From a virus (Duplodnaviria; Heunggongvirae; Uroviricota; Caudoviricetes), in the IMG/VR virus record IMGVR_UViG_2718217885_000011: a DNA stretch of 38,548 bases; one strand, 5' to 3'. Shown piece after piece: positions 268 through 34,583 of this stretch (position 1 is its first letter; each line of letters opens with the position of its first letter). The notes under the pieces are model-generated. The model was not told where the DNA came from. It did no database searches and saw nothing but the letters and a program-made list of their open reading frames with translations. The translations under genes and the position numbers were made by a program.

Positions 268-300
268 AAGCCCTCGCGTTGAGGGCTTTACTGATTTTTT
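268..300. terminator. hairpin plus T-run between convergent grxA and ybjM (bidirectional intrinsic terminator)
   Basis: aagccctc-gcgtt-gagggctt followed by ctgatttttt; lies between the two convergent stop codons. Confidence 0.5.
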
Positions 301-665
301 CTGTGCTGTGGTTTAAACAAACTACTGATAAATAAGAAACACAGTGCCCCCAGCGCACACCAGAACACCGCGCTTAGTAACCATGCCAGCTCTTGCCAGA
401 ATGAGCGCGTCGGTGAAAAAAACAGCCGCATAATGAGCATCGAACAGGGTGCCGCCAGCATTGCGCCAAACAGAGGTTTCAGGACTTCTCTACGCTGTGA
501 AAAGAAGCTGGCGACTGCTCCAGGAAGAATGAAAAATAGCAAGCCGATTTCAGGATGCCCGGCAGCCCGAAAAGCGCCTTTCATGTGCGTCGCCAGAAAA
601 AGGCACACCACAATGAAGAGGACAAAACAGCAGATTGCCCCCGCCCAACGTTGTTTATGTTTCAC
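288..665 (-). CDS. ybjM: inner membrane protein YbjM
   Basis: 125-aa hydrophobic ORF; sequence and position between grxA and ybjL as in E. coli. Confidence 0.9.
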   Translation of the reverse strand: MKHKQRWAGAICCFVLFIVVCLFLATHMKGAFRAAGHPEIGLLFFILPGAVASFFSQRREVLKPLFGAMLAAPCSMLIMRLFFSPTRSFWQELAWLLSAVFWCALGALCFLFISSLFKPQHRKNQ

Positions 666-934
666 TCGTTCCTCCTGACACTGCGTCTATCGAACACATT
701 TTTCGCCAGTGTGGCGTTCAGTAAGATAAAGCCGCTTCGCATTCCATGCTAATATAGGCCAACGCAATTCATATAGCCGTTGATACCTAATGTGATTACA
801 CTAGTAAAATATATTGTTACTTTACTATCGTTTAGGTGCGCTGAATGAATCTGCGCCCTGAATTCTGGTAAAAAACATTATCGTAAATTACCATTTCTTT
901 CAACAGCTTACTAGTAAACAAGAAGTTAGCCTCC

Positions 935-2620
935 GTGAATATAAACGTCGCCGAATTGTTAAATGGGAATTACATTCTGTTATTATTTGTGGTCCTCGCG
1001 CTTGGGCTATGTCTCGGAAAGTTACGACTTGGTTCGATCCAACTGGGTAATTCCATTGGCGTTTTAGTCGTATCGCTGTTATTAGGCCAACAACATTTCA
1101 GCATTAACACCGATGCGCTTAATCTTGGCTTTATGCTGTTTATTTTCTGCGTCGGGGTCGAAGCCGGACCGAACTTTTTTTCCATTTTTTTTCGCGATGG
1201 GAAAAATTACCTAATGTTAGCACTGGTGATGGTTGGCAGTGCGCTGGTGATCGCCTTAGGGTTAGGTAAGCTGTTTGGCTGGGATATTGGCCTGACGGCC
1301 GGTATGTTAGCAGGCTCTATGACGTCGACACCGGTTCTGGTCGGTGCTGGCGATACACTGCGTCATTCCGGCATGGAAAGCAGGCAGCTCTCACTGGCAC
1401 TGGATAATCTGAGCCTCGGGTATGCCTTAACCTATTTAATCGGTCTGGTGAGTTTGATTGTTGGTGCGCGTTACTTGCCGAAATTGCAGCATCAGGACTT
1501 ACAGACCAGCGCCCAGCAAATCGCCCGCGAACGTGGCCTGGACACTGATGCCAACCGTAAGGTTTATTTACCGGTGATCCGCGCCTATCGCGTCGGCCCG
1601 GAGCTGGTGGCCTGGACCGACGGCAAAAATCTGCGTGAACTGGGTATTTATCGACAAACCGGCTGCTACATTGAACGTATTCGACGTAACGGGATTCTGG
1701 CAAATCCAGACGGTGATGCCGTGCTACAAATGGGCGATGAAATAGCGTTGGTAGGCTATCCCGACGCCCATGCCCGACTCGATCCCAGCTTCCGTAACGG
1801 TAAAGAAGTTTTCGATCGTGACCTTCTCGACATGCGTATCGTCACTGAAGAAGTGGTCGTTAAAAACCATAACGCTGTAGGTAAACGTCTCGCACAACTG
1901 AAGTTGACCGATCACGGTTGCTTCCTTAACCGCGTCATTCGTAGCCAGATTGAGATGCCGATAGATGACAACGTCGTGCTTAACAAAGGTGACGTTTTAC
2001 AAGTCAGCGGTGATGCCCGTCGCGTAAAAACCATCGCCGATCGCATCGGCTTTATCTCGATTCACAGCCAGGTCACTGACCTGCTGGCATTTTGCGCCTT
2101 CTTTGTTATTGGGCTGATGATCGGGATGATCACCTTCCAGTTCAGCACATTCAGTTTCGGCATGGGGAACGCTGCCGGGTTGTTATTCGCCGGAATTATG
2201 CTGGGCTTTATGCGTGCTAACCACCCGACCTTCGGTTACATTCCGCAAGGTGCATTAAGCATGGTGAAAGAGTTCGGCTTGATGGTGTTTATGGCAGGCG
2301 TTGGTCTGAGCGCCGGTAGCGGTATTAATAACGGCCTGGGCGCGATTGGCGGTCAGATGTTGATTGCCGGATTAATTGTCAGTCTTGTGCCCGTGGTTAT
2401 CTGTTTCTTGTTCGGTGCTTATGTATTGCGAATGAACCGCGCACTGTTGTTCGGCGCAATGATGGGCGCACGCACCTGCGCGCCGGCAATGGAGATCATC
2501 AGTGATACAGCTCGCAGTAACATCCCTGCGCTGGGCTACGCGGGCACCTACGCAATCGCCAACGTCCTGCTGACGCTGGCAGGGACAATCATCGTCATGG
2601 TATGGCCAGGATTAGGATAA
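935..2620 (+). CDS. ybjL: putative transporter YbjL (AspT/YidE/YbjL family, two TrkA-C domains)
   Basis: 561-aa polytopic membrane ORF with GTG start; recognised as E. coli YbjL over full length. Confidence 0.95.
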
Positions 2621-8304: not shown

Positions 8305-8820
8305 TCAGAGGCCGAGGGCGTTGCGGTGCGCTTCCATCAGGTCCACACCGTCCACAATTTCCACCATGTTGATAAGGTCCACTTCATAGAGCACCTCACC
8401 ATTTATAGTCAGCTTCGCGTAGCTGTTGGTACTGGTCACTTTGGTGGTGTTGCTTTCGCCCGTCTTCCACTCGCCGGAATCCACTTCTTTGTGACGTCCA
8501 CGCACCACAAGCTCCACGGCCTGCACTTCCCCGGTATCGTCACGCTGGATAGAGCCGGTAAAGCGCAACTGGATACCATCCACCGTGGCTTTGCCCATCT
8601 GCTTAAACAGCAGCAGTTCAGTACCACCAATGGAAAATTCCGTATCCAGTGCGCCGTCATCCAGCCCCAGATCCACATCCACTGCACCCGGCATTCCGCC
8701 GCCGCGATACTTCTCATATTTGCGGGTAAATTTCGGCAGCGTCAGCGACTCAACGATCCCCTGCCAGTTGTTCCCGTCGTTAAACAGGTTCAGGTGTTTT
8801 AATTTGCGTGGTAAAGCCAT
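8305..8820 (-). CDS. tail tube protein FII
   Basis: 171-aa ORF, P2 FII position and size. Confidence 0.9.
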   Translation of the reverse strand: MALPRKLKHLNLFNDGNNWQGIVESLTLPKFTRKYEKYRGGGMPGAVDVDLGLDDGALDTEFSIGGTELLLFKQMGKATVDGIQLRFTGSIQRDDTGEVQAVELVVRGRHKEVDSGEWKTGESNTTKVTSTNSYAKLTINGEVLYEVDLINMVEIVDGVDLMEAHRNALGL

Positions 8821-8829
8821 GTTGTCCCC

Positions 8830-10002
8830 TTACGCGCTGACCTGGCTGGCGAAATTCACCAGGTACTGATCGGTGATGCGCTGACGCAGCATCAGGTTTT
8901 CAAGTGGCGGCACTGGCGTGTAGTCGTAGTCGATGGTGAGTTTTCCGGCTTTCAGCGTGTCTTTGTCGTTCACCGACTCATCCAGCCAGCAATCACCACC
9001 AATGAGATAGCCCTGACTGACCAGGCTGCGCATTTTGGCGCGGATACCCTCGATAATGTCGCGCGCCAGCGACGGGTTAAGCGGTTTATCCACCGCCCAC
9101 ATGTGTGCTTCTGCCATCGTGTCCATCAGCACCTGCGCCGTGCGGGTGTAGTTTTCGAAGGCAAAGAGCGGGTCATCACTCAGGCAGCGGGAACCCCAGA
9201 AGCGGAAACCGTCTTTACGCACAAGCGTGGTGACGTCGTTCTGGTTCAGCAGACCTGCATCGGTTGCCGGGTCCTGCAGATCCCAGAACACATCTGCAGA
9301 AATTCCGGTGACACCGTTCACGCCCACGTTGGACAGGCTTTTGTGCCATCCGGTCTGCTCGTCAATTTTGGCGCGCAGACCAAGCGCACGGGCGGTAGCA
9401 TATGCCGTTGCTTCGGCATTCAGCACCGTGTCCCAGCCAGTAAAGTCAGGCCAGATCAGCATCCCTTCGCGCTGGCTGAAGTTTTCGCGGTAAGTGATCG
9501 CCTCCTGCACTGTCTTGCAGCCATACGCTGACAGGTAAGCAAATCCACGCAGGCTTTGCGCCACGCCCAGCAACTCAGTAGCTACCGCCTTGGTGTCGTG
9601 GCCTGGCACGCCGAGAATGCGCGGTTTAACGCCGAGCTGTGACTGGGCAGATAACAGGGCTTTCATACCTGTTTTTTTACCTTCAGCAGTCACTGCGCCG
9701 ATGATATTGGTCGTGGTTTCGTCTTCCGTTTCACCCTGCGGCACACGCACAACAATGGTCACGGGTTTTGCCTGGTCAGCGATGGCATCCAGCGAACGGG
9801 CCAGAGTACCTGACTCACCCGCTTTACCGCTGGCAGTCAGCACATCAGTGATCAGCACGGGTTTATTAAGAGGAAACATTTTTGCATCGGCATCATCGCC
9901 CGTGCAGACCATACCCACGATGGCGGTGCTCACCGTGGTAATAGATCGGGTGCCTTCGTTGACTTCAACAACGCGCACCCCGTGGTGGTAATCCTGAGCC
10001 AT
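8830..10002 (-). CDS. contractile tail sheath protein FI
   Basis: 390-aa ORF, P2 FI position and size. Confidence 0.9.
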
Positions 10003-10078
10003 AGTGGCGAACCTCCTGATTGGATTAGGCTTCGCCCTATGTTGAAGTGATTGTGCCTGACAAACAGCTAAGCGCAGT

Positions 10079-10096
10079 TGTGTCGTTATTCACACA
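10079..10096. promoter_or_regulatory. candidate Ogr-dependent late promoter element (TGT-N12-ACA dyad) upstream of FI
   Basis: TTGTGT-cgttattc-ACACAA palindrome about 85 bp upstream of the FI start codon. Confidence 0.4.
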
Positions 10097-10144
10097 AAAT
10101 AACGGTATTTGTCTGCTTGCAGGGATAATCAACATAATGCTGAT

Positions 10145-10711
10145 TCAGGGGGATTCATTGATCTTATTTGCCGGAAATTTTCTATAAATGGTAGAAACGC
10201 CTACATCAAAAATCAGTGCAATACGCTGTCTTGATTCTCCGGCCTCGAGTAAACGCCCAATCTGTGCCCACTGTTCGGTGGTCAACTTAGGACGGCGTCC
10301 ACCTACTCTGCCTTTGGCACGAGCTGCAGCCAGCCCTGCCCTGGTACGTTCAACTATCAGTTCGCGTTCCATTTCAGCTAGGGCACCCATGACATGAAAA
10401 AAGAAACGGCCCATTGGGGTACTGGTATCAATACTGTCAGTCAGGCTTCTGAAATTCACACCACGCTGGCGCAACTCTTCTATCAGCGTAACAAGATGCC
10501 GCATACTGCGCCCCAACCTGTCCAGCTTCCAGACAACCAGCGTGTCTCCTGCCGATAGTGTCCTGAGTAGTTTTTTCAGCCCCGGTCTGTCGGACTTAGT
10601 GCCACTGATTTTGTCCTCAAAAATCCGCTCACATCCCGCGCAGTTCAGTGCATTACGTTGCAAATCGGTGTTCTGGTCATTTGTTGACACGCGTACATAG
10701 CCAATAAGCAT
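10145..10711 (-). CDS. serine recombinase, DNA invertase of Pin/Gin/Cin/Hin family
   Basis: N-terminal GYVRVSTNDQ catalytic serine motif, C-terminal HTH; near-identity in motif blocks to E. coli e14 Pin by recollection; second ATG chosen for SD spacing. Confidence 0.9.
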   Translation of the reverse strand: MLIGYVRVSTNDQNTDLQRNALNCAGCERIFEDKISGTKSDRPGLKKLLRTLSAGDTLVVWKLDRLGRSMRHLVTLIEELRQRGVNFRSLTDSIDTSTPMGRFFFHVMGALAEMERELIVERTRAGLAAARAKGRVGGRRPKLTTEQWAQIGRLLEAGESRQRIALIFDVGVSTIYRKFPANKINESP

Positions 10712-10738
10712 GATCATCCCCCTGAATAAAAACCGGAG

Positions 10739-11152
10739 ATGATGCCAGTTAGCTGTTACCTCTGCATTTTCTTAAACGTTGGTTTGGGAGAAGCGGCAAA
10801 ACGGGATGTGGGGACAGGGGAAAATCAGATACCGGACATGGCCTCTTTTGCCAGTGGTGATGGATGGATGAAATTACCCAACGGGAAAATCCTGCAATAT
10901 GGTCGTGGTGCGGTTACGCCGACATTATCGACGCAAACAATGAGAATTACATTCAGCATCCCTTTCCCCAAAAAAGCGGACTGCGCCATGCTTACTCATT
11001 CTGGTGATGGCGGTGCGCCTTTAGGCGCTGGGCGAGGGTTCGTGATGACTGCAGAAGGCCCAACGTTAACCGGCTTTAATTCTGCTTACAGAACGTCATC
11101 AACCAGCGACACGGTATCGATGAATTACAGTTGGTGGGCTGTTGGTGAGTAA
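10739..11152 (+). CDS. alternative tail-fibre C-terminal segment (Sv'-like), silent in current orientation
   Basis: 137-aa ORF inside the invertible segment, opposite orientation to H, Gly/Thr/Ser-rich receptor-tip-like sequence. Confidence 0.55.
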   Translation: MMPVSCYLCIFLNVGLGEAAKRDVGTGENQIPDMASFASGDGWMKLPNGKILQYGRGAVTPTLSTQTMRITFSIPFPKKADCAMLTHSGDGGAPLGAGRGFVMTAEGPTLTGFNSAYRTSSTSDTVSMNYSWWAVGE

Positions 11153-11163
11153 TTTTATTCAGG

Positions 11164-11616
11164 GTGATTTATATGAACGAATATGTTTATAGCGCAAGGC
11201 ATAATGCTTTTTTCCCTGTGGATATGATTGATAAATATAAATCAGAGGGATGGGATTTATCAGACGCTAAGGAAGTAAATCAAAATATTATCAGTGAGTT
11301 TATGGCTGAACCGCCACAAGGAAAAATCCGTATTGCCGGAGATGATGGGCTGCCTGCGTGGGCAGATATTCCTCCACCCACGCATGAAGAACTTATTGAA
11401 ATTACAGAATCAGAAAGACAGCTACTAATTAACCAGGCCAACGAATACATGAACAGTAAGCAATGGCCCGGTAAAGCCGCTATTGGTCGTCTGAAAGATG
11501 ATGAACTGGCGCAATATAATTTGTGGCTGGATTATCTGGACGCACTGGAACTGGTTGATACCTCCAGTGCTCCAGATATTGAATGGCCTACGCCTCCGGC
11601 AGTTCAGGCCAGATGA
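11164..11616 (+). CDS. tail fibre assembly protein (alternative copy, tfa')
   Basis: 150-aa ORF; C-terminal SSAPDIEWPTPP motif shared with the opposed tfa copy (TSTAPDVIWPELP). Confidence 0.8.
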   Translation: MIYMNEYVYSARHNAFFPVDMIDKYKSEGWDLSDAKEVNQNIISEFMAEPPQGKIRIAGDDGLPAWADIPPPTHEELIEITESERQLLINQANEYMNSKQWPGKAAIGRLKDDELAQYNLWLDYLDALELVDTSSAPDIEWPTPPAVQAR

Positions 11617-12190
11617 CATCCGGCGCGGTGCTGGTATCTGTTGCCGTCACCGCGTCAATGTAATCCAGCACGGCGTTAAGTCGGGTTGTTTCTGCCTGCG
11701 TCAACTTCCGTCCGGCCTGTAATTTCAGCTGAATCAGACTAATGGAAACCATTGCTGCATCAATCAGTGACTGGCGCTGTGCTTCTGCCGCTTCTACTGC
11801 GGCGCTATGCTGTGCCTCAGTATCCGTCACCCATTTCTCACCATCCCATTTATCATATGGCGTTAACGGGGCGATAGTGGTTGTATTTTCAGGGTAATCA
11901 CCCGGAGCTGTGATTTCTTTGGCGTCTCCCGTTTCGGTGTTATAGACGATTTCACCGCGATGGTCTGACACATATTCCCATGATTTTAAATCCACAGAAC
12001 GGCAAATTGTATAACCAGCTTTATGTGTAACTGGTGCATCTAAACAAGAACATGCCGGGATACCGACGCCAACCGCAAGATATTCAGTTGATGTGGAAAT
12101 ATATTCCCGCGTTTCACCATCATAGTTATAAACGGTAATATCCCCTGCCTTTGTAGCAACAAGTCCACTATTTAATATTGCTTTATCCAT
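11588..12190 (-). CDS. tail fibre assembly protein (Tfa/G-like), active orientation
   Basis: 200-aa ORF; start ATG overlaps stop of the tail-fibre C-terminal reading frame (TAATG). Confidence 0.85.
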   Translation of the reverse strand: MDKAILNSGLVATKAGDITVYNYDGETREYISTSTEYLAVGVGIPACSCLDAPVTHKAGYTICRSVDLKSWEYVSDHRGEIVYNTETGDAKEITAPGDYPENTTTIAPLTPYDKWDGEKWVTDTEAQHSAAVEAAEAQRQSLIDAAMVSISLIQLKLQAGRKLTQAETTRLNAVLDYIDAVTATDTSTAPDVIWPELPEA

Positions 12191-12468
12191 TATGCTGCTC
12201 TCACGATATAGTTAAATGCAATGCTTCTTGGTCTGTTCTCTGAGGCAGTTGGCACTACTCTTGAAGCATCAAAATTGACTAAATGAGGATTGTTTGGGGT
12301 ATTTGGAATGATTGTGGTGTTACCTATCGTATTACGAAGTGCTGATTGACTTACAAAAACACCACTCGCTGTATTAAAGCTAATAGCCGCATTAGCTTCG
12401 GTTTGTCCATTACCAAATGTGCCGGTTATATTACGAATAGCATCCCCCTGAGCAGACAGAATTTCGCG
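12190..12468 (-). other. tail-fibre C-terminal coding segment, out of frame with the H ORF
   Basis: frame +1 relative to H encodes REILSAQGDAIRNITGTFGN...ENRPRSIAFNYIVRAA (conserved Mu/P1/e14-type fibre C-terminus) and ends TAA overlapping the tfa ATG. Confidence 0.6.
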
Positions 12469-13727
12469 CCCGCGTCAATACCGCGCCCGTCATCCCAACC
12501 ACGAATAAACTCACCACGTAAATCAGGCAATTTATTTGTCGGATAAGCCTTTGCCAGTTCCGGATATTCTTCAGCAGAAAAAACCGCACCGTTGCATTTC
12601 AGCCAGCCTGTTGGCGGAGTGGCGGAAGGCCACGGAACAGGGACACCAACAGGTAATGCAGAGCCTTCTCCCAAACCAAGGTATGCGAGAAGACCAGCTA
12701 CATCCTTTCCACTCAAATTGGTAAGCGTATTGTCCAGCGGTTGTTTACCTGCCAGCGCATTAAGCATTGTCGTGGCAAAGTTCGGATCATTCCCCAGTGC
12801 CGCCGCCAGTTCGTTCAGTGTATCCAGTGCAGCAGGTGCAGAACCCACCATTCCTGCAATCGCCGATTTCACAAAAGCCGTAGTGGCAATCTGTGTATTG
12901 TTGACCGACTGCGCCGCCGTGGGGGCTGTTGGCGTTCCGGTGAGTGCCGGACTCGACAACGGTGCTTTTAGTGCCAGCGCATTGTTAATGGTGGTACTGA
13001 AATTCGGATCATTGTTAATGGCTGCGGCTATTTCTTTCAGCGTGTCCAGCGTGGCTGGTGCACCATTAATAAGGGCCGTCAGTGCCGCCTGTACAAACGC
13101 AGTGGTCGCAACCTGCGTGGTATTATTCCCCGCCGCTGGCGTTGGCGCTTTGGGGGTTCCGATAAATGTCGGGCTGGCTTTTGGCGCGTACTGTGAATGC
13201 GGGTCCGGTGCGGCAAGATGTTTTGCCATCTGATCATCCGCGTACACCTTCAGCTCCAGTGCCTTGTCATCCACATACTTGCGGGTTGCCAGCACTACAG
13301 CAGGGTCGATTTTCAGGGTGATATTGTCCGTGCTGCTGGTAATCAGCACCATGCGCACGGTCTGAGTGCGCCCGCTACCTTCAGCCAGTTGCGGCTTATA
13401 GCTTTCCGGGCAGTTGCCCACGGCAATCAATGCCCCGGACTCATCAAACAAGCCCACTTCACGTATCCACCAACCGCCCTCGTTTTCAGGGATCACCTGT
13501 TCGGCAATAATCTGGCTGCTGTTCTGCGGGTCGATATAAAGCATATTCAGCGCAGCCCGGCGTTTCTCATTTACCAGTGCCGTCTGCTTTGCGTCCGGCG
13601 TTGGCAATACTCCACCGCCATCGCCCACCGCCATATGGGTAATTTTTAGCGGCACACCGAGCGCGGCGGCGCTGGCAAGTTTCGCCGCGCCAATATCCGT
13701 CAGCAGGGTATAAAATTTTGTGCTCAT
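12426..13727 (-). CDS. tail fibre protein H (N-terminal and shaft part; ORF terminates prematurely, see findings)
   Basis: 433-aa ORF with P2 H-like N-terminus and internal NDPNF-containing repeats; ends ...GRGIDAGAKFCLLRGMLFVI*. Confidence 0.85.
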   Translation of the reverse strand: MSTKFYTLLTDIGAAKLASAAALGVPLKITHMAVGDGGGVLPTPDAKQTALVNEKRRAALNMLYIDPQNSSQIIAEQVIPENEGGWWIREVGLFDESGALIAVGNCPESYKPQLAEGSGRTQTVRMVLITSSTDNITLKIDPAVVLATRKYVDDKALELKVYADDQMAKHLAAPDPHSQYAPKASPTFIGTPKAPTPAAGNNTTQVATTAFVQAALTALINGAPATLDTLKEIAAAINNDPNFSTTINNALALKAPLSSPALTGTPTAPTAAQSVNNTQIATTAFVKSAIAGMVGSAPAALDTLNELAAALGNDPNFATTMLNALAGKQPLDNTLTNLSGKDVAGLLAYLGLGEGSALPVGVPVPWPSATPPTGWLKCNGAVFSAEEYPELAKAYPTNKLPDLRGEFIRGWDDGRGIDAGAKFCLLRGMLFVI

Positions 13728-22168: not shown

Positions 22169-23935
22169 ATGAACACCACACTGACACCCGCAGATCTCGA
22201 TCCCCGTCGGCAGGCCATGCTGCTGTACTTTCAGGGATACCGCGTAGCCCGCATTGCTGAAATGCTGGGCGAGAAAGTTGCAACCGTTCACAGCTGGAAA
22301 AAACGCGACAAGTGGGGTGACTATGGGCCGCTGGATCAGATGCAGCTCACCACCGCCGCACGCTACTGCCAGCTCATTATGAAGGAGCACAAAGAAGGGA
22401 AAGATTTCAAAGAGATTGACCTGCTGGCGCGCCAGTCGGAACGCCACGCGCGGATCGGCAAGTTTAACAATGGCGGCAACGAAGCCGACTTAAACCCTAA
22501 CGTCGCCAACCGCAACAAAGGCCCACGCCGGCAGCCGGAAAAGAACGTTTTCACCGATGAACAGATTGAGAAGCTGGAAGAAATTTTCCATTCCTCCATG
22601 TTCAACTACCAGCGCCACTGGTGGGAAGCCGGAAAAACCAACCGCATCCGCAACCTGCTGAAGTCACGCCAGATCGGCGCGACCTTTTACTTTGCCCGTG
22701 AAGCCCTGATTGACGCCCTGCTTACCGGACGTAACCAGATTTTCCTTTCCGCCAGTAAGGCACAGGCCCACGTCTTTAAACAGTACATCATCGACTTCGC
22801 CAAAGAAGTGGAGGCGGAGCTGAAAGGCGATCCGATGGTGCTTCCCAACGGGGCCACGCTTTACTTCCTCGGCACCAATGCCCGCACTGCCCAGAGTTAC
22901 CACGGCAACCTGTATCTGGATGAATACTTCTGGATACCGAAATTCCAGGAGCTGCGCAAAGTGGCTTCCGGTATGGCTATTCACAAAAAATGGCGACAAA
23001 CCTATTTTTCCACACCATCCAGCCTGACACACAGTGCTTATCCGTTCTGGTCCGGTGCGCTGTTTAACCGTGGGCGCAACAAAGCCGATAAGGTGGACAT
23101 CGACCTGTCCCACAACAATCTGGCCCCCGGCCTGCTGTGCGCAGACGGGCAATACCGCCAGATAGTCACCGTGGAAGATGCGGTACGCGGCGGCTGTAAC
23201 CTGTTCGACCTCGACCAGCTACGCATGGAGTACAGCCCGGACGAATATCAGAACCTGCTGATGTGCGAGTTCGTGGACGATCTCGCGTCCGTGTTCCCGC
23301 TCAGCGAACTGCAGGCGTGCATGGTGGACAGTTGGGAAGTCTGGACCGATTTTCATGCACTGGCCCTGCGCCCGTTTAGCTGGCGCGAGGTGTGGATCGG
23401 TTATGACCCGGCAAAAGGTACGCAGAACGGCGACAGCGCCGGATGCGTGGTGGTGGCACCGCCAGCCGTGCCAGGCGGTAAGTTTCGCATTCTTGAGCGT
23501 CACCAGTGGCGCGGGATGGACTTCCGCGCCCAGGCTGATGCAATCAAAAAACTGACCGAGCAGTACAACGTGACCTATATCGGCATCGACTCGACAGGCG
23601 TCGGTCACGGGGTTTATGAGAACGTGAAAGCGTTCTTTCCTGCCGTCCGGGAGTTTGTCTACAACCCCAACGTTAAAAACGCTCTGGTACTCAAGGCCTA
23701 CGACATTATCAGCCACCGCCGTCTGGAGTTTGACGCCGGACACACCGACATAGCGCAGTCCTTTATGGCAATCCGTCGCGCCACCACCGCCAGTGGCAAC
23801 CGCCCGACCTATGAAGCCAGCCGCAGCGAAGAAGCCAGCCACGCCGATCTGGCATGGGCAACGATGCACGCACTGTTTAACGAACCGCTGCAGGGCGAAT
23901 CCGCCAATACCAGCAATATTGTGGAGATTTTTTGA
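22169..23935 (+). CDS. terminase ATPase (large) subunit P
   Basis: 588-aa ORF divergent from O, P2 P size. Confidence 0.9.
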   Translation: MNTTLTPADLDPRRQAMLLYFQGYRVARIAEMLGEKVATVHSWKKRDKWGDYGPLDQMQLTTAARYCQLIMKEHKEGKDFKEIDLLARQSERHARIGKFNNGGNEADLNPNVANRNKGPRRQPEKNVFTDEQIEKLEEIFHSSMFNYQRHWWEAGKTNRIRNLLKSRQIGATFYFAREALIDALLTGRNQIFLSASKAQAHVFKQYIIDFAKEVEAELKGDPMVLPNGATLYFLGTNARTAQSYHGNLYLDEYFWIPKFQELRKVASGMAIHKKWRQTYFSTPSSLTHSAYPFWSGALFNRGRNKADKVDIDLSHNNLAPGLLCADGQYRQIVTVEDAVRGGCNLFDLDQLRMEYSPDEYQNLLMCEFVDDLASVFPLSELQACMVDSWEVWTDFHALALRPFSWREVWIGYDPAKGTQNGDSAGCVVVAPPAVPGGKFRILERHQWRGMDFRAQADAIKKLTEQYNVTYIGIDSTGVGHGVYENVKAFFPAVREFVYNPNVKNALVLKAYDIISHRRLEFDAGHTDIAQSFMAIRRATTASGNRPTYEASRSEEASHADLAWATMHALFNEPLQGESANTSNIVEIF

Positions 23936-24966
23936 TGGGAAAGAGTAAGAAGAACCGAGCTGCGGCGACGAAACAGATCCAGCTTAAAAGTCAAACTACA
24001 GCCGAAGCATTCAGCTTCGGCGATCCCGTTCCTGTTCTGGACCGCCGTGAACTGCTGGACTATGTGGAATGCGTACAGATGGACCGCTGGTATGAGCCTC
24101 CCGTCAGCTTTGACGGACTGGCGCGCACCTTCCGCGCTGCCGTGCATCACAGTTCCCCGATTGCAGTAAAGTGTAACATTCTGACCAGTACCTATATCCC
24201 TCATCCTCTGCTCAGCCAGCAGGCTTTTTCGCGTTTTGTGCAGGACTATCTGGTATTTGGCAATGCCTATCTGGAGAAACGCACGAACCGCTTCGGTGAA
24301 GTGATCGCCCTTGAACCTGCGCTGGCAAAATACACCCGACGCGGATTAGACCTAGATACCTACTGGTTTGTGCAATACGGTATGACAACCCAGCCGTATC
24401 AGTTCACGAAAGGCAGCATTTTTCATCTGATGGAACCGGATATTAATCAGGAGATCTACGGCCTGCCCGGTTATCTTTCTGCCATTCCGTCAGCCCTGCT
24501 CAACGAGTCCGCCACGCTGTTCCGCCGTAAGTATTACATCAACGGCAGCCATGCAGGCTTCATCATGTATATGACCGATGCCGCGCAGAACCAGGAGGAT
24601 GTGAACAACCTCCGCAACGCGATGAAAAGCGCCAAAGGCCCTGGCAACTTCCGCAATCTGTTTATGTACTCGCCTAACGGCAAAAAGGACGGACTTCAGA
24701 TTATCCCGTTGTCAGAAGTCGCAGCGAAGGATGAGTTTCTGAATATCAAGAACGTGAGCCGTGATGACATGATGGCTGCGCACCGCGTGCCACCACAGAT
24801 GATGGGGATTATGCCAAGTAATGTTGGCGGGTTTGGGGATGTGGAGAAGGCCAGTTGCGTCTTTGTCCGTAACGAACTGATGCCTCTACAAAAACAACTC
24901 GAGGGGCTCAATGAATGGTTAGGGGAGAAAATTATGCGTTTTGAAAAATATGAACTAACTCTTTGA
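23932..24966 (+). CDS. portal (capsid vertex) protein Q
   Basis: 344-aa ORF, start overlaps P stop, P2 Q size. Confidence 0.9.
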   Translation: MMGKSKKNRAAATKQIQLKSQTTAEAFSFGDPVPVLDRRELLDYVECVQMDRWYEPPVSFDGLARTFRAAVHHSSPIAVKCNILTSTYIPHPLLSQQAFSRFVQDYLVFGNAYLEKRTNRFGEVIALEPALAKYTRRGLDLDTYWFVQYGMTTQPYQFTKGSIFHLMEPDINQEIYGLPGYLSAIPSALLNESATLFRRKYYINGSHAGFIMYMTDAAQNQEDVNNLRNAMKSAKGPGNFRNLFMYSPNGKKDGLQIIPLSEVAAKDEFLNIKNVSRDDMMAAHRVPPQMMGIMPSNVGGFGDVEKASCVFVRNELMPLQKQLEGLNEWLGEKIMRFEKYELTL

Positions 24967-25009: not shown

Positions 25010-25711
25010 TTAAATTTCCCTTTCAAGAATATGAGAAACTATTGTCTCAGTTAAATATTTAACCATACCCTCGTTAGCACAGACAGAACCATTCTTCGAT
25101 ATCTCAAATTCACAACGATGTCCTAGAACATATCCTGCCGCCCTGACCTTATCAAGAGAATATGCTTTATCCCCAATAATATCCTTCACATCATCAAATG
25201 CATTTTTCTTAGATGTAACCTCTACGGTTGCCTTAGAGTTATCATTAACTATCAAATTACTAACCTTAACCTTCTTGATACTAACAAGTTCCAAATCATA
25301 TTTTTTATGCAGCGAATCCAAATACTCAGACAGTTTAATATCAACGATGCCAAACCCTATTTTATAACCTGAATCCGCACTAAGTCGCTCTGTCAAAGCC
25401 TTTATTGATTTTGGTGGATTGTAAACTGATAATAAATATAACCTACCTATGAGTTTAGATATAGAGAACTGAATTGACTCATAAGTAATGAACTCTTGTT
25501 CATTTTCGTTACCCAAAGGATCAACTGAAGTCTGTTTATTCAACTTAGCTTCAGTATACTTAGCTGATAGTACGTCAGATGAAACTTCAAAGTCAGAATA
25601 ACCATAGCCAAGTTCTTCAGAGTATTTGTTACTCTTTATATAAAAAGCAATCTCACTTAATGTAAGATTAGACTTCAATCTATTCCATTTAACTCTGATC
25701 AGACTTTCCAT
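25010..25711 (-). CDS. cargo operon gene 3, hypothetical protein (233 aa), no recognisable domain
   Basis: ATG start with GGGGAAG SD-like sequence, 23-nt overlap with the upstream gene; AT-rich codon usage unlike the phage core. Confidence 0.7.
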   Translation of the reverse strand: MESLIRVKWNRLKSNLTLSEIAFYIKSNKYSEELGYGYSDFEVSSDVLSAKYTEAKLNKQTSVDPLGNENEQEFITYESIQFSISKLIGRLYLLSVYNPPKSIKALTERLSADSGYKIGFGIVDIKLSEYLDSLHKKYDLELVSIKKVKVSNLIVNDNSKATVEVTSKKNAFDDVKDIIGDKAYSLDKVRAAGYVLGHRCEFEISKNGSVCANEGMVKYLTETIVSHILEREI

Positions 25712-26813
25712 CTTTCTTCCCCTGAGCCTGTTTATTTAGTTCAATTATAATGGAACGGGCTGCCTTTTCAATCATACGACTAAAAAATAACTTCTGACTA
25801 TCTTTCAACTGGACTGTTGACTTATTATACTCGCCACCCCCTTTGTATTTTTTAATACCTTTAGCTATATATGAAAACCCCTTAAAATTTTGAGCGTCGT
25901 TAAATTGCGCTTCAAACTCAAAAATATTTGGATCCGCACCTTTCTCTTTAACTCGCCATTTAATTTTACATATATAAAAGCCACGCTCATAAAGTGAGTA
26001 GATTTCTTCAGATTTGAGCACCCCTTCCCCTTTCAACGATGCCTTACTAACATGTACTCCTAAATCTGTTTCGCCGTCTTCCTCTTCAATCTCTTCTGGT
26101 TTTGGGTGATAAACATAAGCATCTGTTACATCATCGAGTTCATAACCTTCAAGCCCATTTATTAATTTCGTAAAGAAATCAGTTCTGGACTGAGGGGAAT
26201 CAATGTTTTCTAGACTTATTTCTTGGATATCGAGAGTAGCGTCCGAAATTGGTTTTCCTTCCTCAATCGCTCTTTCCTTTGATAATCTTTCAACGATAGC
26301 AAGTAACTGATTCTCATAAACCTCAGTTTGCTCATTATCTGGACGGCGAATCACATAACCAGCTTCTGTTGGCTCTACCTCTATGACAGCTTGCTTTTTA
26401 ACGACTTGTTTGAAATCACTTTTTGAAAAATTTGTTGACATATAAGTTATATGAATATTTATCATGCCACTTTTATCAGCAACTATATGGCAGAGGTCTT
26501 TTTGGTCTGTTAACTCTTTTTTTAGCGAATCCGCCGCTTTTAATAAAATTGTTTTTTCAGGCATATTAGATACTAATCTTGAAGTAGAACGCTCCCTCCG
26601 AGGCTCACTTCCTAATATCTCTGCAATTTTCTGATGATCATAGTAATCATGAGTGAACTTTGAGAAGTTTTTAGCTAATAATTTTCTATCGGTGTTTTTT
26701 GAAATAATTATACCTCTTGAAAGATAAAGCTCTCTCATCTCATTTTGAGTTACTTGTGACTGGTTAAGAGCATCACATAAAACCTTATCCGTCACACTAT
26801 AAATATTGCTCAT
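25689..26813 (-). CDS. cargo operon gene 2, hypothetical protein (374 aa) with acidic stretch, no recognisable domain
   Basis: ATG start 1 nt after the stop of gene 1 (TGA-T-ATG); long uninterrupted AT-rich ORF. Confidence 0.7.
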   Translation of the reverse strand: MSNIYSVTDKVLCDALNQSQVTQNEMRELYLSRGIIISKNTDRKLLAKNFSKFTHDYYDHQKIAEILGSEPRRERSTSRLVSNMPEKTILLKAADSLKKELTDQKDLCHIVADKSGMINIHITYMSTNFSKSDFKQVVKKQAVIEVEPTEAGYVIRRPDNEQTEVYENQLLAIVERLSKERAIEEGKPISDATLDIQEISLENIDSPQSRTDFFTKLINGLEGYELDDVTDAYVYHPKPEEIEEEDGETDLGVHVSKASLKGEGVLKSEEIYSLYERGFYICKIKWRVKEKGADPNIFEFEAQFNDAQNFKGFSYIAKGIKKYKGGGEYNKSTVQLKDSQKLFFSRMIEKAARSIIIELNKQAQGKKDGKSDQS

Positions 26814-26814
26814 A

Positions 26815-27879
26815 TCAATAATCCCAAGATGTTGATTCAGTACTATAAAACTCTTTAACTGTAGGAACTAAATAAATATCCATAGAAAGTAGTTTTTCCT
26901 TTGCACTATCATCATAATTCCAATCAAAAGCATACTTCTGAAGTGCCCGTTTAAAATGCGATCTTATTGAATCATTCCGATCTTTTGTCGCGATACGTAT
27001 TCTTATGTTGTTTTTTCCATTCAGAATCTGGTAGTTAGTTAAAAGATCAAAGAGATAATAAAACTCCATATCTGTGGAGCCCGGACGATTATAATATACA
27101 ACATACCCTGCAGGATAAACTTCAACTTCTCTTTGTAGCTCGCGATTATACGAGTAAACTGCATCATGTTTAATAATTAAAAATGGAGCAGTCAAAGACT
27201 CTATCGTTGCAGGTAAATAATCATCGGTGACAATTACCTTATGATATGTAAGTTGAGGGTAATAAAAACCATACTCATCTCTCGGGAATTGATTATCTCT
27301 GATTAATTCATTCATATCTGCGATTATAGATAACATATAGCTAATCGACTTAGGCTCAATTATATGTATTTGTTGCCCATCAGACACTTTTATATTATCT
27401 AATTTAACTGCCTTCGGCTTTCTTTTTCTTCCTGCAGGTTTGGGAGGATCGAAGAAATCATAAAAGTTATGCTCAAAATCGTTATCATGATTATAAACAA
27501 ACAATAACCCTCTAACCTCACTATCCCCAACGCATATATTATATTTCTCTCTCCACTCCGGACTATATTGAGCACAGGAAATTGTATACCCTAGGGATGT
27601 CAGCGCTTTTTCTATCATGTCAGGATTAATAGAACCCTTAGAGTAACTTTTTAGGTCAGTATTCAATAAAATAGTTTTATTTAAATAAGGGTCTTTATAG
27701 CTAAAAACCACATCGACAGGGTGTGTATGAGCCTGCTTTTTTTCGAGTGGTTTATGATTTTCTTCGTCAATACATCCAAAGTCCTGATCACACGGCCCTG
27801 ATATGCTCCATTTAAAGCGCTCAAAAATCTTCGATGATACTATCTTTGCTAATTCTTCTATCGGTCCGTTCTCAGCCAC
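26815..27879 (-). CDS. cargo operon gene 1, hypothetical protein (~354 aa); possible PD-(D/E)xK-like motif (HPVD ... ILLNTDLK)
   Basis: ORF open to TTG at 27912; GTG at 27879 preceded by AAGGGGA is the preferred start; no P-loop. Confidence 0.65.
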   Translation of the reverse strand: MAENGPIEELAKIVSSKIFERFKWSISGPCDQDFGCIDEENHKPLEKKQAHTHPVDVVFSYKDPYLNKTILLNTDLKSYSKGSINPDMIEKALTSLGYTISCAQYSPEWREKYNICVGDSEVRGLLFVYNHDNDFEHNFYDFFDPPKPAGRKRKPKAVKLDNIKVSDGQQIHIIEPKSISYMLSIIADMNELIRDNQFPRDEYGFYYPQLTYHKVIVTDDYLPATIESLTAPFLIIKHDAVYSYNRELQREVEVYPAGYVVYYNRPGSTDMEFYYLFDLLTNYQILNGKNNIRIRIATKDRNDSIRSHFKRALQKYAFDWNYDDSAKEKLLSMDIYLVPTVKEFYSTESTSWDY

Positions 27880-28007
27880 AATACATCCCCTTAACCTGAT
27901 CTTTCTCGGCAAAATCCTATGGACAAGATAAGTAAATCATTGTTCCTTTGCAAGAATGGAGGCGCATTATGCTTAGTAGTGAAATATGACATCAAGCGCG
28001 CGCTCGT

Positions 28008-29513: not shown

Positions 29514-31928
29514 TTAATACAGGTTCCGCCACTTATCATCTTCCTTCAGACGCTGGTTCCGATAGAAGATACGCAGGCCTGCTCCTGACGGAATACTGCC
29601 GCCGCGAAGGAGCAAATCGACTTCTTTCTCGCTGCCATCAAATCCCCTGGACTTCAGTTCATAGACGAGCTGCTGTCGCTGATGGTCTGTAATTCGCTGT
29701 TTGTAGTCTTTACGCCGTTTCGGTTTCACCTGGCGTAACCTTGCAGCCAGTTCCCGGCGCTCTTTTTTGCTCATACTGTGCAGGTAATTGTGCAACTCCT
29801 TGTCATTCATACGGGTAATATCCGTTCTGGAGTCCCCATCAGCTGATTTGTCTTTCCCTTGCTGGTTCAAATTTTCAGCAAGGGGACAGTTATTGCCACG
29901 AGTCCAAGGGGCGCAAGCGCCCTGGTCGGCTGCCGCCTCCTGAACGTCAACGGCCTTACGAACCATTTTCCACTTCACTGCATGAGTGCAGATCTTGCCC
30001 TCTGCAATGGGTGACCAGATGCCATAAATACGAATGCCGTGATCGCCATAGGCGGTCGGCTCTTCGTTGATTTCATAAGCGGTTCTGATGAGGTGATATT
30101 TGCGGGGAACCAGTACGCCGCCCTGCTTCATGATGTAGGTGGCAAAACAACCAGCATCAGCAGCAGCCAGGATGGCATCAAGGCGTGGGTTATCCAGTAC
30201 CGGCGCACCTGCTTTTTTGTCCCCCTGTTGCCTTGCCGCCTGACCAGCCAGCAATCGCAGTTCACGGTAAGCCTGACGCCCCGGAATGCCAAAGAAGCGG
30301 AATTGCTGAACACGATGCAGAGACGCCCAGGCATTAACGTATTCAGCGTTATCACGCAGGGATTTACCCGTTTCCTTGCTGATCTCGCCAGCCAGACCAC
30401 GCCCGTCAATGTTCTTACTGATGTATTTCGCGATGTAGCTTGTTGGCGTACCTTTGCGCGGGTTTATCAGCTCAGACTTAAAGCGTGGTCCTGTGTTATT
30501 ACCCAGCTCCTCGCGGTCTTCACGAATGGCAAACTTACGCAACAAAGCAGTAATGGCGCGGCGATCTTTTTTGCGCATAAAACACAACAGGTGCCAGTGA
30601 ACTGTACCGTCATGATGCGGCTCAGCCACCCGCACGCCATACCAGCGCAATCCGGCTTTGTACATCGCCTTACGAAATGCAGCAAACATGCCGACCAGAT
30701 AATCACTGCTTTGTCTTACCGTCGCATTTGTCCAGGTCGGGTTGGGCCTGCCGTTATTTAGCGTGGAATGGAAACGTGACGGACAGGTGATGGTGTAGAA
30801 AACGGCGCAGTCGCCACGCATTTCCGCGATAAGCTCCAGACCTTTAACACAGGCCATCATCTCATTGCGGCGATGCGCAGGGTTGCTGCTGCTGGCGTTT
30901 ACCACATCCTCCATGTCCAGAGTGTCGCCGTCTTCGTTCACCAGTTCATGAGAACGGAAAAACTCCAGCGACTTACGGCGCTGCTCACGTTTATGCATCA
31001 CGGCTTCATAGCTGACATAGGGAGATGCTTTTTTGCTGACAAGGCAGACAGCACGCAACTGCTCTTCCCGCCATTCGCAACGCATCTTCCATAATTTCCG
31101 ATACCACCAGTCGGCGCACAACATACGCGCCAGCGAACCCGGAATGAGTTCATAGGGCACGGGTTTACGGCGGTTTCTTTTCCGACGGAGTTGCTCAAAC
31201 GCAGGCGGGATGACATCCAGACGCACGGTTTCCGCTGCCACCTTTTCCCATGTCTTGCGGATTTCTGCTGGCTTAACGTCATCGGTGGCATACAAATCGC
31301 CACAAGCTGCATCAAGGCACATGCTCATATGCGCAGCTACCAGGGTGGACAGGCGTTTCACCTGATCCTGACTCATTTCAGGCAGGATCAGCAGGCCGTC
31401 CAGCCCTTCATGGCTTGCCATAAAGCGAAAAGAAGTGGATAGCTGACTGTCGCGTACATGCTCCAGTCGTTCAAGACATGGCTTAATCGTCTCACGCAAA
31501 TAGCGGAAATAAGCCTTTGGCCTGCCCAGGCTGCTGAAGTATTCAATACGTTGCATCAGCGGCTTGCTGATGTGGGAAGGCTGGGCATTGACGTCCGCCA
31601 GAATGACCATTTCTGGATTAAAACGCTGCTGCTCATGCGCCAGCTTTGCCCGGCTAATGAGCTTATCCTGCTCCATTCCGCGTTGGACAGGATCACGGGA
31701 TTCATTAAAGAAATAACGCTCCCAGACCTGCTCACTCAGTGCCTCGTGGCGCAGTTGTTCCTGCTCGTTATCGGCAGCGTACAGAGTGATCAGGTTTGAA
31801 AGTGCAGACTCCGGCGCAACTTCCGCCGGGTCCAGATAAGGGTTAATGGCCTTTTTCGGGCCGTTCCATGAAAATGATGCAGCGGCCTCGTTAAAGCCGC
31901 TAGAGTTGCTCATATCGTCATAACTCAT
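29514..31928 (-). CDS. replication initiation protein A (rolling-circle HUH endonuclease)
   Basis: 804-aa ORF with HWHLLCF (HUH) and YIAKYISK (catalytic Tyr) motifs as in P2 gpA. Confidence 0.9.
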
Positions 31929-33819: not shown

Positions 33820-34329
33820 TCACAGCAAACCAAATGAAGCACCGAGGCCAGTCACGGTATCAACTGCACTCGCCATCGCAGGGTTAGCCTGTAAACGGGC
33901 CTGCAATGAAACAGCAGCCAACGCCATCAGTCGTGTTACAGAGTTAATGCTGCTGATAGCATCACGACGGCCTGCACTGGTTTTTACATCGCCAGACACC
34001 GCGCCTGCAGCTACACGCCCGATCTCTGCTGTTGCACTCATGACGTAATGCGGCAGTTTCTCTTTTGCCACCTCATTAATCGGAACACATGGCAGGCAGT
34101 GAATCTGTGCCAGAAAACCATCTACCAGTGTTGAGTCTTCTGTCAGATCAGTAAGCAACCAAATTTCTGGTGCGGTTAATAAATGAGGTTGAGCTGGATT
34201 CAGCTTGTTCCGCAGAATCTGCACATTCATACCTGCACGTTCTGCCAGTTGCACCAAGTTGTGGCGCAATGCAAATGCACGACAGGCTTCATCAAAATGT
34301 GGATGTTTGGAAACTTGGTAATCAAACAT
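33820..34329 (-). CDS. CII-like transcriptional activator (phage 186 CII family)
   Basis: [20 protein letters not shown]...[25 protein letters not shown] closely resembles 186 CII as recalled; start at internal Met, ORF track extends to 34383. Confidence 0.85.
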
Positions 34330-34361
34330 AGTCGACACTCCTGATGCATCCCAAAATGGAA

Positions 34362-34583
34362 CTAGTTGAATACAACATTGCAATCAGCAAGTGCATCAAC
34401 GGTAAGAGCAGCAAGGTTGATCATTACCTTTTCTCTTTTCTTGTCTTTCCGAAGGCGATGGCGAGGGATACGACCATCAGCCAGCATATCGTTGATGGTG
34501 TCGATAGAAAGACCAGTAAGTTCGCTATAACGCTCAATTGTGACGTGTGGCGTATTCAGAGTTATTGAAATGTTAGGGGTCAT
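34362..34583 (-). CDS. Apl/Cox-like excisionase and repressor of lysogenic promoter
   Basis: 73-aa HTH protein, first gene of the operon divergent/convergent with cI. Confidence 0.7.

Follow-up and report, generated by a model that had tools for sequence, protein, structure and literature searches.

Phage tail-fibre switches of the Mu G, P1 C and e14 P type share one layout: the constant N-terminal part of a fibre gene lies outside the invertible segment, two opposed cassettes, each with a fibre C-terminus and a tail-fibre assembly gene (tfa), lie within it, and the invertase gene sits just outside. The invertases of the Din family (Hin/Gin/Cin/Pin) have about 185-190 amino acids, an N-terminal resolvase domain, the serine of the YVRVSTxxQ motif and a C-terminal HTH_7 domain; their targets are two inverted 26-bp sites with imperfect 12-bp half-sites and an identical 2-bp core, and their enhancer, within the 5' part of the invertase gene, has two Fis sites spaced 48 bp apart. 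In Mu G/Gin and P1 C/Cin, a constant Sc part is joined to alternative Sv/U or Sv'/U' cassettes. Within P2-like prophages, the Fin invertase of Salmonella Fels-2 reportedly inverts tail-fibre C-termini (Kutsukake et al. 2006). The P segment of e14, a cryptic prophage of E. coli K-12, is arranged as stfP-tfaP / tfaE-stfE / pinE, and its site pair inverts experimentally (PMC4272514); PinQ-driven inversion in e14 gives rise to StfE2, with T2 adsorption blocked (PMC12529663). In the P2-like prophages of EPEC E2348/69, tail-fibre C-termini are likewise inverted by an invertase, and coexisting variants were detected in clonal cultures by whole-genome sequencing, PCR confirmation being described for e14 (Goldberg et al. 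2014, PMC4272514). One of the EPEC loci carries three inverted repeats and yields four variants.

We analysed a 38,548-nt stretch of DNA from a virus of the Caudoviricetes (IMGVR_UViG_2718217885_000011; hereafter, the window), and conclude that the tail fibre of this P2/186-like prophage is very probably switched between two states by site-specific inversion, with an invertase system of the Pin type (Din family). The gene order runs from FII-FI (8305-10002) through the invertase and cassettes to H-I-J; in the annotation of a 99%-identical locus, it is bordered on one side by the tail sheath gene FI and on the other, past H, by the I/J baseplate genes. In P2, fun(Z) is found directly upstream of the pF activator site and FI. 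The locus thus occupies the Z/fun hotspot slot, bounded by the tfa gene (G) and the pF promoter/FI, as an earlier reading made from the sequence alone had proposed. The slot is the same, whereas the P2 cargo is the T5-exclusion gene fun(Z) and that of the window is an invertase with a second fibre cassette; in P2-like phages the cargo of this hotspot is variable and often includes a DNA invertase (bioRxiv 10.1101/2024.10.15.618418). Near-identical loci are present in E. coli strain 64EVA (99.0% over 2.9 kb), Escherichia phage 500465-1, the O157:H43 T22 phage P2 (KC618326) and the Klebsiella phages Kp48xx, with the same invertase (up to 99.5% identity), the same cassettes and the same position between the tail-fibre/tfa genes and FI, and are already annotated there as DNA invertase, tail fiber assembly protein and tail protein.

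The invertase is encoded on the minus strand at 10145-10711. The open reading frame extends to an upstream ATG at 10717 (10145-10717, 190 aa), but the start was placed at 10711 because homologues begin with MLIGYVRV. Pfam searches identified a Resolvase domain at residues 5-137 (E = 2.3e-53) and an HTH_7 domain at residues 140-183 (E = 1.5e-15), and the catalytic-serine motif GYVRVSTNDQ is present; the protein is a Din-family serine invertase in every one of these features. Its best match in the PDB was Gin (3UJ3, E = 1e-92), aligned over the full length. Identity was 85% to PinE of e14 (157/184 residues), 79% to P1 Cin and about 75% to D108 Gin, and reached 99.5% with the invertase of phage 500465-1; Mu and P1 differ from the window in an invertase of 75-79% identity, as well as in phage backbone. 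As in e14, the invertase gene is transcribed away from the segment, whereas P1 cin runs towards its segment, its 3' end overlapping cixL. No invertase promoter was found in a scan of positions 9950-12800, where the counts of sigma-70 promoters and terminators did not exceed shuffled expectation.

A perfect 12-nt inverted repeat (10143-10154 and 10716-10727) brackets the invertase reading frame. By chance alone, 3.8 kb would hold about 0.4 such pairs; the repeat was not adopted as the boundary of a mobile element. On inspection by eye, its 10716-10727 arm overlaps the Shine-Dalgarno sequence of the invertase, and the motif at 10716-10731 also pairs with 11153-11168, ahead of the tfa gene of the second cassette.

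The 5' part of the invertase gene contains a homologue of the Fis-dependent recombinational enhancer (10622-10693, minus strand), corresponding to nucleotides 19-90 of the gene, the same interval that the P1 record annotates as the enhancer of Cin-mediated inversion in cin. Over this stretch the window was 78% identical to cin and 88% to pin. Two 15-mers fit the Fis consensus (Huebner & Arber 1989): TGTCAACAAATGACC at 10675-10689 and GCGCGGGATGTGAGC at 10627-10641, with their centres 48 bp apart. The pair at nucleotides 23 and 71 is the sole pair of consensus matches at this spacing in cin, pin and the window gene alike, and the homologue lies about 97 bp from the nearest crossover site, as in e14. 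From this conserved arrangement, Fis binding and Fis dependence of the switch are predicted.

Two 26-bp crossover sites were identified, inverted relative to each other. The invertase-proximal site (10767-10792) reads TTTTCTTAAACG-TT-GGTTTGGGAGAA and the site internal to H (12666-12691) reads TTCTCCCAAACC-AA-GGTATGCGAGAA. The pair was recovered independently by a repeat search and by a pattern search (two matches against 0.01 expected), and 12666-12691 is the only position in the window that scored above 16/26 against the left site. The inner 12-bp half (TTCTCCCAAACC) is identical in both sites, as is the AA/TT core dinucleotide; the outer half-sites are imperfect and differ from each other, so that 21 of the 26 positions match. 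The invertase-proximal site is one nucleotide from the pinE-proximal pix site of e14 and the H-internal site three nucleotides from the pix site inside stfP, and by this resemblance the two are classed as e14 pix-type, as opposed to the gix sites of Mu or the cix sites of P1. The H-internal site encodes ..AYLGLGE.., in frame with ..NVGLGE.. of the second cassette. A third site, which would have permitted multiple inversions as in one EPEC P2-like prophage, was sought and rejected: only two matches to the 14-nt core with at most two mismatches occur in the window, which in this respect resembles the simpler EPEC locus.

The sequence-only reading had placed the boundaries at 10775-10795 and 12488-12510. 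The left one was right (the site is 10767-10792); the right one was misplaced by about 190 bp, its best inverted match to the left site (13/26) being at chance level, a score reached or bettered at more than 200 positions in the window. The segment that it had drawn at 10740-12480 is accordingly replaced by one of 1901 bp between the central dinucleotides of the two sites (about 10779-12679). The same reading took the crossover sites to be diverged and the switch to be perhaps decaying. That inference is unsupported because it was built on the misplaced right boundary: the outer half-sites are indeed unlike each other, but the 5/26 differences within the pair equal in number those of the e14 pair, which is functional (PMC4272514).

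Between the two sites lie two opposed cassettes. The one in silent position, on the plus strand (cassette B), comprises an alternative fibre C-terminus with a gp53-like C domain (10793-11152, within an open reading frame spanning 10739-11152; Gp53-like_C, E = 1e-12) and a tail-fibre assembly chaperone gene (11173-11616; Caudo_TAP, E = 8e-32), which is open from a GTG at 11164 (11164-11616) but is annotated in relatives as a 444-nt gene; the C-terminal half of its product is TfaP-like. The minus-strand cassette (cassette A) comprises a TfaE-like chaperone gene (11588-12190; Caudo_TAP, E = 4.6e-32), whose product is identical to TfaE of e14 at 180 of 200 residues, and a fibre C-terminus (12193-12665, defined by three-frame translation) with a Collar domain and tip, which in the orientation of the window is joined to H and shares 102 of 171 residues with the C-terminal part of StfE. 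The constant N-terminal part of H lies outside the segment (12692-13727, minus strand; Phage_tail_fib N-terminal domain, E = 4.6e-65), and the Collar domain of H falls inside it. The tfa genes of the two cassettes run towards each other and share 29 nt (11588-11616). When the segment was inverted in silico, an uninterrupted fibre of 473 aa resulted, in which cassette B is fused to H; in either orientation, the crossover leaves the reading frame unbroken.

This is the layout of Mu G, P1 C and e14 P. The Pin-like serine invertase, the two opposed cassettes, the tfa overlap of about 29 nt and the likeness to those three segments had all been read from the sequence beforehand, and the domain assignments, pix-type sites, in-frame fusion, enhancer homologue and the occurrence of both orientations (see below) agree with them. 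The e14 P segment is among the closest known systems, sharing the order and orientations of the genes, a 29-nt convergent tfa overlap, 85% identity in the invertase and 90% in TfaE, and sites one and three nucleotides apart from those of the window. Whereas e14 is lambdoid and defective and its fibre gene is truncated, the window carries the module in an apparently complete P2/186-like prophage with a full-length P2-type H; the tips also differ, that of cassette B being gp53-like rather than StfP and that of cassette A being unlike the tip of StfE.

We propose that the invertase would bind the two inverted pix-type sites, which lie in H and immediately upstream of the invertase gene itself, probably assisted by a Fis-bound enhancer in its own 5' end, and that strand exchange at the identical central AA/TT dinucleotide would flip the 1.9-kb segment. 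Transcription of H is taken to start outside the segment, so that its constant N-terminal codons (about 352) would be joined in frame to either cassette. Cassette A would supply the Collar domain, a StfE-like tip and the TfaE-like chaperone, and cassette B the gp53-like tip and its own chaperone; virions with two alternative receptor specificities would be the outcome. The unrelated tips (Collar plus StfE-like versus gp53-like C) suggest that the two orientations may confer different host ranges.

Both orientations were observed in public genomes. Among 5426 complete E. coli genomes, surveyed at a coverage of at least 80%, the orientation of the window was present in 60 and the flipped one in 56. 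In GPEC1040 and GPEC1366, the 1883-bp interiors between the sites are exact reverse complements of each other, the flanks are identical except for one single-base indel in the right flank, and the breakpoints fall inside the shared core of the sites. Moreover, 58-mers spanning the native and the flipped junction, each with the window's own variant of the right-hand site, matched at least 10 genomes apiece with 100% identity. Because both orientations occur, and with them the exact reverse-complement pair, the switch appears to work in this family of near-identical prophages, and the copy in the window is probably active as well.

The public orientations might instead have arisen by rare general (RecA-type) recombination or by exchange of mosaic modules, without the invertase. 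Mosaicism is pronounced in the tail-fibre regions of P2-like and lambdoid phages, pieces of the segment match HK97, e14 and Klebsiella phages, and the GC content changes at the segment (40-50% across it versus 55-58% in the flanking structural genes). Yet RecA would not recombine efficiently over an inverted homology as short as this one, about 14 bp with scattered matches besides; a base-perfect reverse complement between near-identical flanks, with breakpoints inside the 26-bp sites, also speaks against this origin, and the roughly 1:1 split fits a reversible switch. We regard it as extremely improbable.

One lesion was found in the cassette that is fused to H: a C-run at about 12466-12468, 200 nt into cassette A, has lost one nucleotide; the frameshift (at about 12468) is absent from the sequence-only reading. 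As a consequence, the H reading frame ends at 12426, and its last 90 or so codons run on in another frame to 12193 (three-frame translation). Restoring the missing C gives an H of 512 aa, equal to the intact gene annotated in 64EVA, the closest relative, which carries one extra C at this run. Of the 5426 complete E. coli genomes, 26 contain the repaired 41-mer and none the 40-mer across the frameshift. Programmed frameshifting in H was rejected because in these 26 genomes the run is one C longer and the allele is in frame, and a look-up of the truncated 433-aa H for recurrence in other assemblies returned no exact product on record. The frameshift is either a sequencing error or a recent mutation. 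Since the cassette in expressed position is frameshifted, two working fibres are not encoded by the sequence as it stands; should the frameshift prove genuine, a full-length fibre would be obtained only from the flipped state.

This frameshift, whose allele is unique among the surveyed genomes, is together with the dissimilar outer half-sites the ground for regarding the switch as frozen: its parts would be recognisable, while the copy would no longer invert, fixed in one orientation and on its way to a pseudogene cluster. Against this stand the intact invertase reading frame with its near-identical counterpart in phage 500465-1, the intact enhancer homologue, a site pair no more diverged than that of e14, and the occurrence in other genomes of both junction types with exactly the window's right-hand site. 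The deletion affects the cargo and not the switch, and lies in a homopolymer run, where assembly errors are common; 64EVA itself shows two homopolymer indels of this kind at other points of the locus (the invertase and cassette B), the cassette-A deletion being unique to the window. A frozen switch is thus considered unlikely. The single-base frameshift in one cassette is the sole sign of decay, and the switch machinery is unaffected.

A different function was also weighed, namely that the module serves mainly in defence of the lysogen, the StfE-type chimeric fibre of one orientation masking outer-membrane receptors and blocking adsorption of T2-like phages. The homology of cassette A to StfE and TfaE of e14 and the pix-type sites accord with such a role, given the StfE2 that inversion of the e14 P segment yields (PMC12529663). 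The gene fused here, however, is a full-length H, and the P2/186-like prophage that carries it appears complete; the receptor-binding tip of cassette A also differs from StfE. In P2, H belongs to a late operon that depends on Ogr and is expected to be off in a lysogen, and the same would be expected of H here. A mainly defensive module is therefore very unlikely in our estimate. Were the frameshift real, inversion might turn virion infectivity on and off instead of toggling host range; that either this applies or the module doubles as a lysogen defence, through an StfE-type fibre made with TfaE, is, jointly, decidedly unlikely.

The preferred reading remains a reversible, invertase-driven switch between two fibres. 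Documented cases of the device already exist in e14, Mu, P1 and P2-like prophages, and its occurrence here advances no open question. For annotation, a crossover site lies inside H at 12666-12691, and the H "pseudogene" is best treated as a single-base homopolymer problem; assembly differences between strains are to be read in the knowledge that the segment appears in either orientation in public genomes. Two alternative receptor-binding tips are probably available to the prophage, a point that bears on the prediction of its host range.

An ORF map of 7-16.5 kb and the annotated locus of the closest relative, E. coli 64EVA, which is 99% identical to the window and from which gene names were drawn, placed the module in a P2-like series of minus-strand late genes: T, E, FII (8305-8820), FI (the sheath gene, 8830-10002), module, H, I, J, W and V. 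The invertase (10145..10717, minus strand; 190 aa) contains a Resolvase catalytic domain (E 2e-53) with the motif GYVRVSTNDQ, and an HTH_7 domain. Cassette B, on the plus strand, consists of a fibre end with a C-terminal Gp53-like_C tail-fibre tip (10739..11152) and a tfa gene (11164..11616); the tfa gene of cassette A lies on the minus strand (11588..12190), as does the tail-fibre gene H (12426..13727), whose product has an N-terminal domain of the P2 type along with a Collar domain. Both tfa products match the Caudo_TAP tail-fibre assembly chaperones, and the two genes converge with a 29-nt overlap. ORF map and domain matches thus bore out the gene content proposed in the sequence-only reading, and the proposed Z/fun position was also right, as in phage P2 the pF activator site and FI are immediately preceded by fun(Z). 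GC content is 40-50% in the module and 55-58% around it, the drop coinciding exactly with the module.

Two smaller features lie near the invertase. One, noted by eye in the gap that separates the start of FI (10002) from the end of the invertase gene (stop at 10145), is a TGT-N12-ACA dyad (TGTGTCGTTATTCACACA, 10079-10096) at the position of the Ogr/activator binding site of pF in P2, so that the late promoter immediately adjoins the end of the invertase module. The other is a perfect 12-nt inverted repeat (10143-10154 and 10716-10727; ATTCAGGGGGAT and ATCCCCCTGAAT) whose arms exactly bracket the invertase ORF; it is probably meaningless, since chance alone would yield about 0.4 such pairs and one arm, judged by eye, spans the ribosome-binding site of the invertase gene.

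The layout is gene for gene that of the e14 P segment of E. coli K-12 (stfP, tfaP, convergent tfaE and stfE, pinE). The invertase is identical to PinE at 157 of 184 residues, to P1 Cin at 79%, to D108 Gin at about 75% and to that of Escherichia phage 500465-1 at 99.5%; its closest solved structure is Gin (3UJ3, E 1e-92). The TfaE-like chaperone shares 180 of 200 residues with e14 TfaE, and cassette A is similar to StfE as far as the Collar region, with a different tip. Cassette B is unrelated to StfP except in the site-encoded residues. The system is very probably a two-state Din-family inversion switch of the tail fibre; for activity of this particular copy our confidence is lower.

An inverted-repeat search returned one standout pair, 10767-10793 and 12665-12691 (27 nt, 81% complementary). 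The left site (10767-10792, reverse strand) reads TTCTCCCAAACC-AA-CGTTTAAGAAAA and the right site (12666-12691, inside H) TTCTCCCAAACC-AA-GGTATGCGAGAA; inner half-sites and central dinucleotide are the same, and the differences (5/26) all fall in the outer halves. The left-site pattern matches exactly two places in 38.5 kb, where 0.01 would be expected, and no third crossover site emerged in the window when a 14-nt core was searched for less strictly. The right boundary had previously been put at 12488-12510; this stretch agrees with the left site at 13/26 positions, and as over 200 positions in the window score as high or higher, the resemblance is due to chance. At 1.9 kb (~10779-12679), the invertible segment extends some 190 bp further into H than had been thought and takes in the Collar domain. 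The e14 sites, TTCTCCCAAACCAAGGTTTTCGAGAG and TTCTCCCAAACCAACGTTTATGAAAA, lie 3 and 1 nt, respectively, from those of the window and differ from each other by the same 5/26.

Reading frames match across the sites (H ..LLAYL-GLGE-GSALP.., cassette B ..FLNV-GLGE-AAKRD..), and flipping 10779-12679 in silico gave an unbroken 473-aa fibre with the gp53-like tip at its end. Among 5426 complete E. coli genomes, the window arrangement was found in 60 and the flipped one in 56, when at least 80% of the 2.9-kb locus was required in the given arrangement. For 58-nt probes that span the junctions and contain the window's own variant of the right-hand site, at least 10 genomes gave 100% matches to the flipped form, and at least 10 did so to the native (window) form. 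The same prophage occurs in two isolates from chickens, GPEC1040 and GPEC1366, where the 1883 bp between the sites of one are the base-perfect reverse complement of those of the other; their left flanks are identical, and the right flanks are identical bar one single-base indel, so that the breakpoints fall within the core that the 26-bp sites share. General recombination or mosaicism might also produce differences in orientation, but an inversion so exact, with both breakpoints in the sites, contradicts this origin and makes it most improbable. Both orientations and both junction types among these genomes show that the switch is active within this prophage family and that the window's own sites are, judged by sequence, of the recombining kind. 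Coexisting inversion variants have been detected by whole-genome sequencing of clonal cultures for e14 and for loci in two EPEC P2-like prophages, with PCR confirmation of two genotypes described for e14 (PMC4272514), and a survey of P2-like phages found that the Z/fun hotspot often has a DNA invertase, with inversion of adjacent genes (bioRxiv 10.1101/2024.10.15.618418).

At the sequence level, a candidate enhancer is present inside the invertase gene. The P1 reference record annotates a Cin-mediated inversion enhancer at nt 19-90 of cin, and its counterpart in the window (10622-10693) has an identity of 88% with pin and 78% with cin. The cin, pin and window genes were scanned with the degenerate Fis consensus reportedly given by Huebner and Arber in 1989, (G/T)NN(C/T)(A/G)NN(A/T)NN(C/T)(A/G)NN(C/A). 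Each gene has a sole consensus pair 48 bp apart, at nt 23 and nt 71 (10675-10689 and 10627-10641 in the window), and the whole window has only four such pairs per strand. The proximal predicted Fis site and the centre of the nearest crossover site are ~97 bp apart, and Fis would be expected to bind at this 5' enhancer homologue.

In the native orientation, the H frame spans the site and the Collar domain before it meets a stop at 12426, while its last ~90 codons (..REILSAQGDAIRNITG...FNYIVRAA) run to 12193 in another frame. The window is one C short of 64EVA in a C-run at ~12466-12468; in the 64EVA annotation H is intact (512 aa). A 40-mer of the window allele occurred in 0 of the 5426 complete genomes and the repaired 41-mer in 26, and the truncated protein was absent from a large assembly collection. 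The missing C must reflect a sequencing error in the homopolymer or else a mutation that arose very recently. In 64EVA itself (NZ_CP138399.1; positions 1646-2655 of the retrieved locus), the annotation shows a frameshift in the invertase and another in cassette B, each due to a single extra A in an A-run (opposite window positions 10396 and 10969); this suggests that public records of the locus contain homopolymer assembly errors, and two such indels in one locus indicate that these artefacts are common. In either case the lesion is in the cargo, sparing invertase, sites and enhancer. The earlier suggestion that the switch is decaying through diverged sites is unsupported; the sites are sound, being no more diverged than the e14 pair. 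A frozen switch is a possibility that we consider unlikely.

The prophage carries other cargo. Three consecutive minus-strand ORFs at 25010-27912 (233, 374 and 365 aa), for which no Pfam match was found, correspond to three PADLOC models of candidate defence genes, Hp3 (7e-9), Hp2 (2.5e-47) and Hp1 (5.5e-64), respectively. They lie between ORF 23932-24966, which from its position we take to be portal, and an 804-aa ORF (29514-31928), by position presumably gpA, in what we assume to be the P2 old/tin hotspot. A full-length Old-type ATPase-TOPRIM nuclease gene (35653-37422, plus strand; PADLOC Old, 770 bits; Pfam AAA_15 and OLD-like TOPRIM) is flanked by the genes for the CI repressor (34671-35609) and the integrase (37496 to the window end), making it a second defence-type cargo. 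The repressor ORF (plus strand, 312 aa) has two separate Phage_CI_repr HTH matches and Phage_CI_C, reflecting either a doubled HTH or an over-long ORF call; with the CII (CP76) gene at 33820-34383, it assigns the prophage to the 186 type of the P2-like group. At the left end of the window (288-2620), host genes (ybjM, PF11045, and an Asp-Al_Ex/TrkA_C permease) indicate that the prophage adjoins the ybjL-ybjM region of a chromosome of Escherichia type. The window was found to contain no tRNA gene.

H belongs to a late operon in P2-type phages. This placement weakens the proposal that the locus serves lysogen defence in the manner of e14 StfE2 (PMC12529663), which we regard as improbable. Such a switch is already known, given near-identical annotated loci in many public genomes and phage records, an architecture matching e14, Mu and P1, and published inversion in P2-like prophages; added here are the corrected right boundary, the soundness of the sites, the enhancer homologue and the frameshift. 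As a tail-fibre switch, inversion would join the constant part of H to either tip-plus-chaperone cassette, and alternation of the cassettes would in turn alternate receptor specificity.
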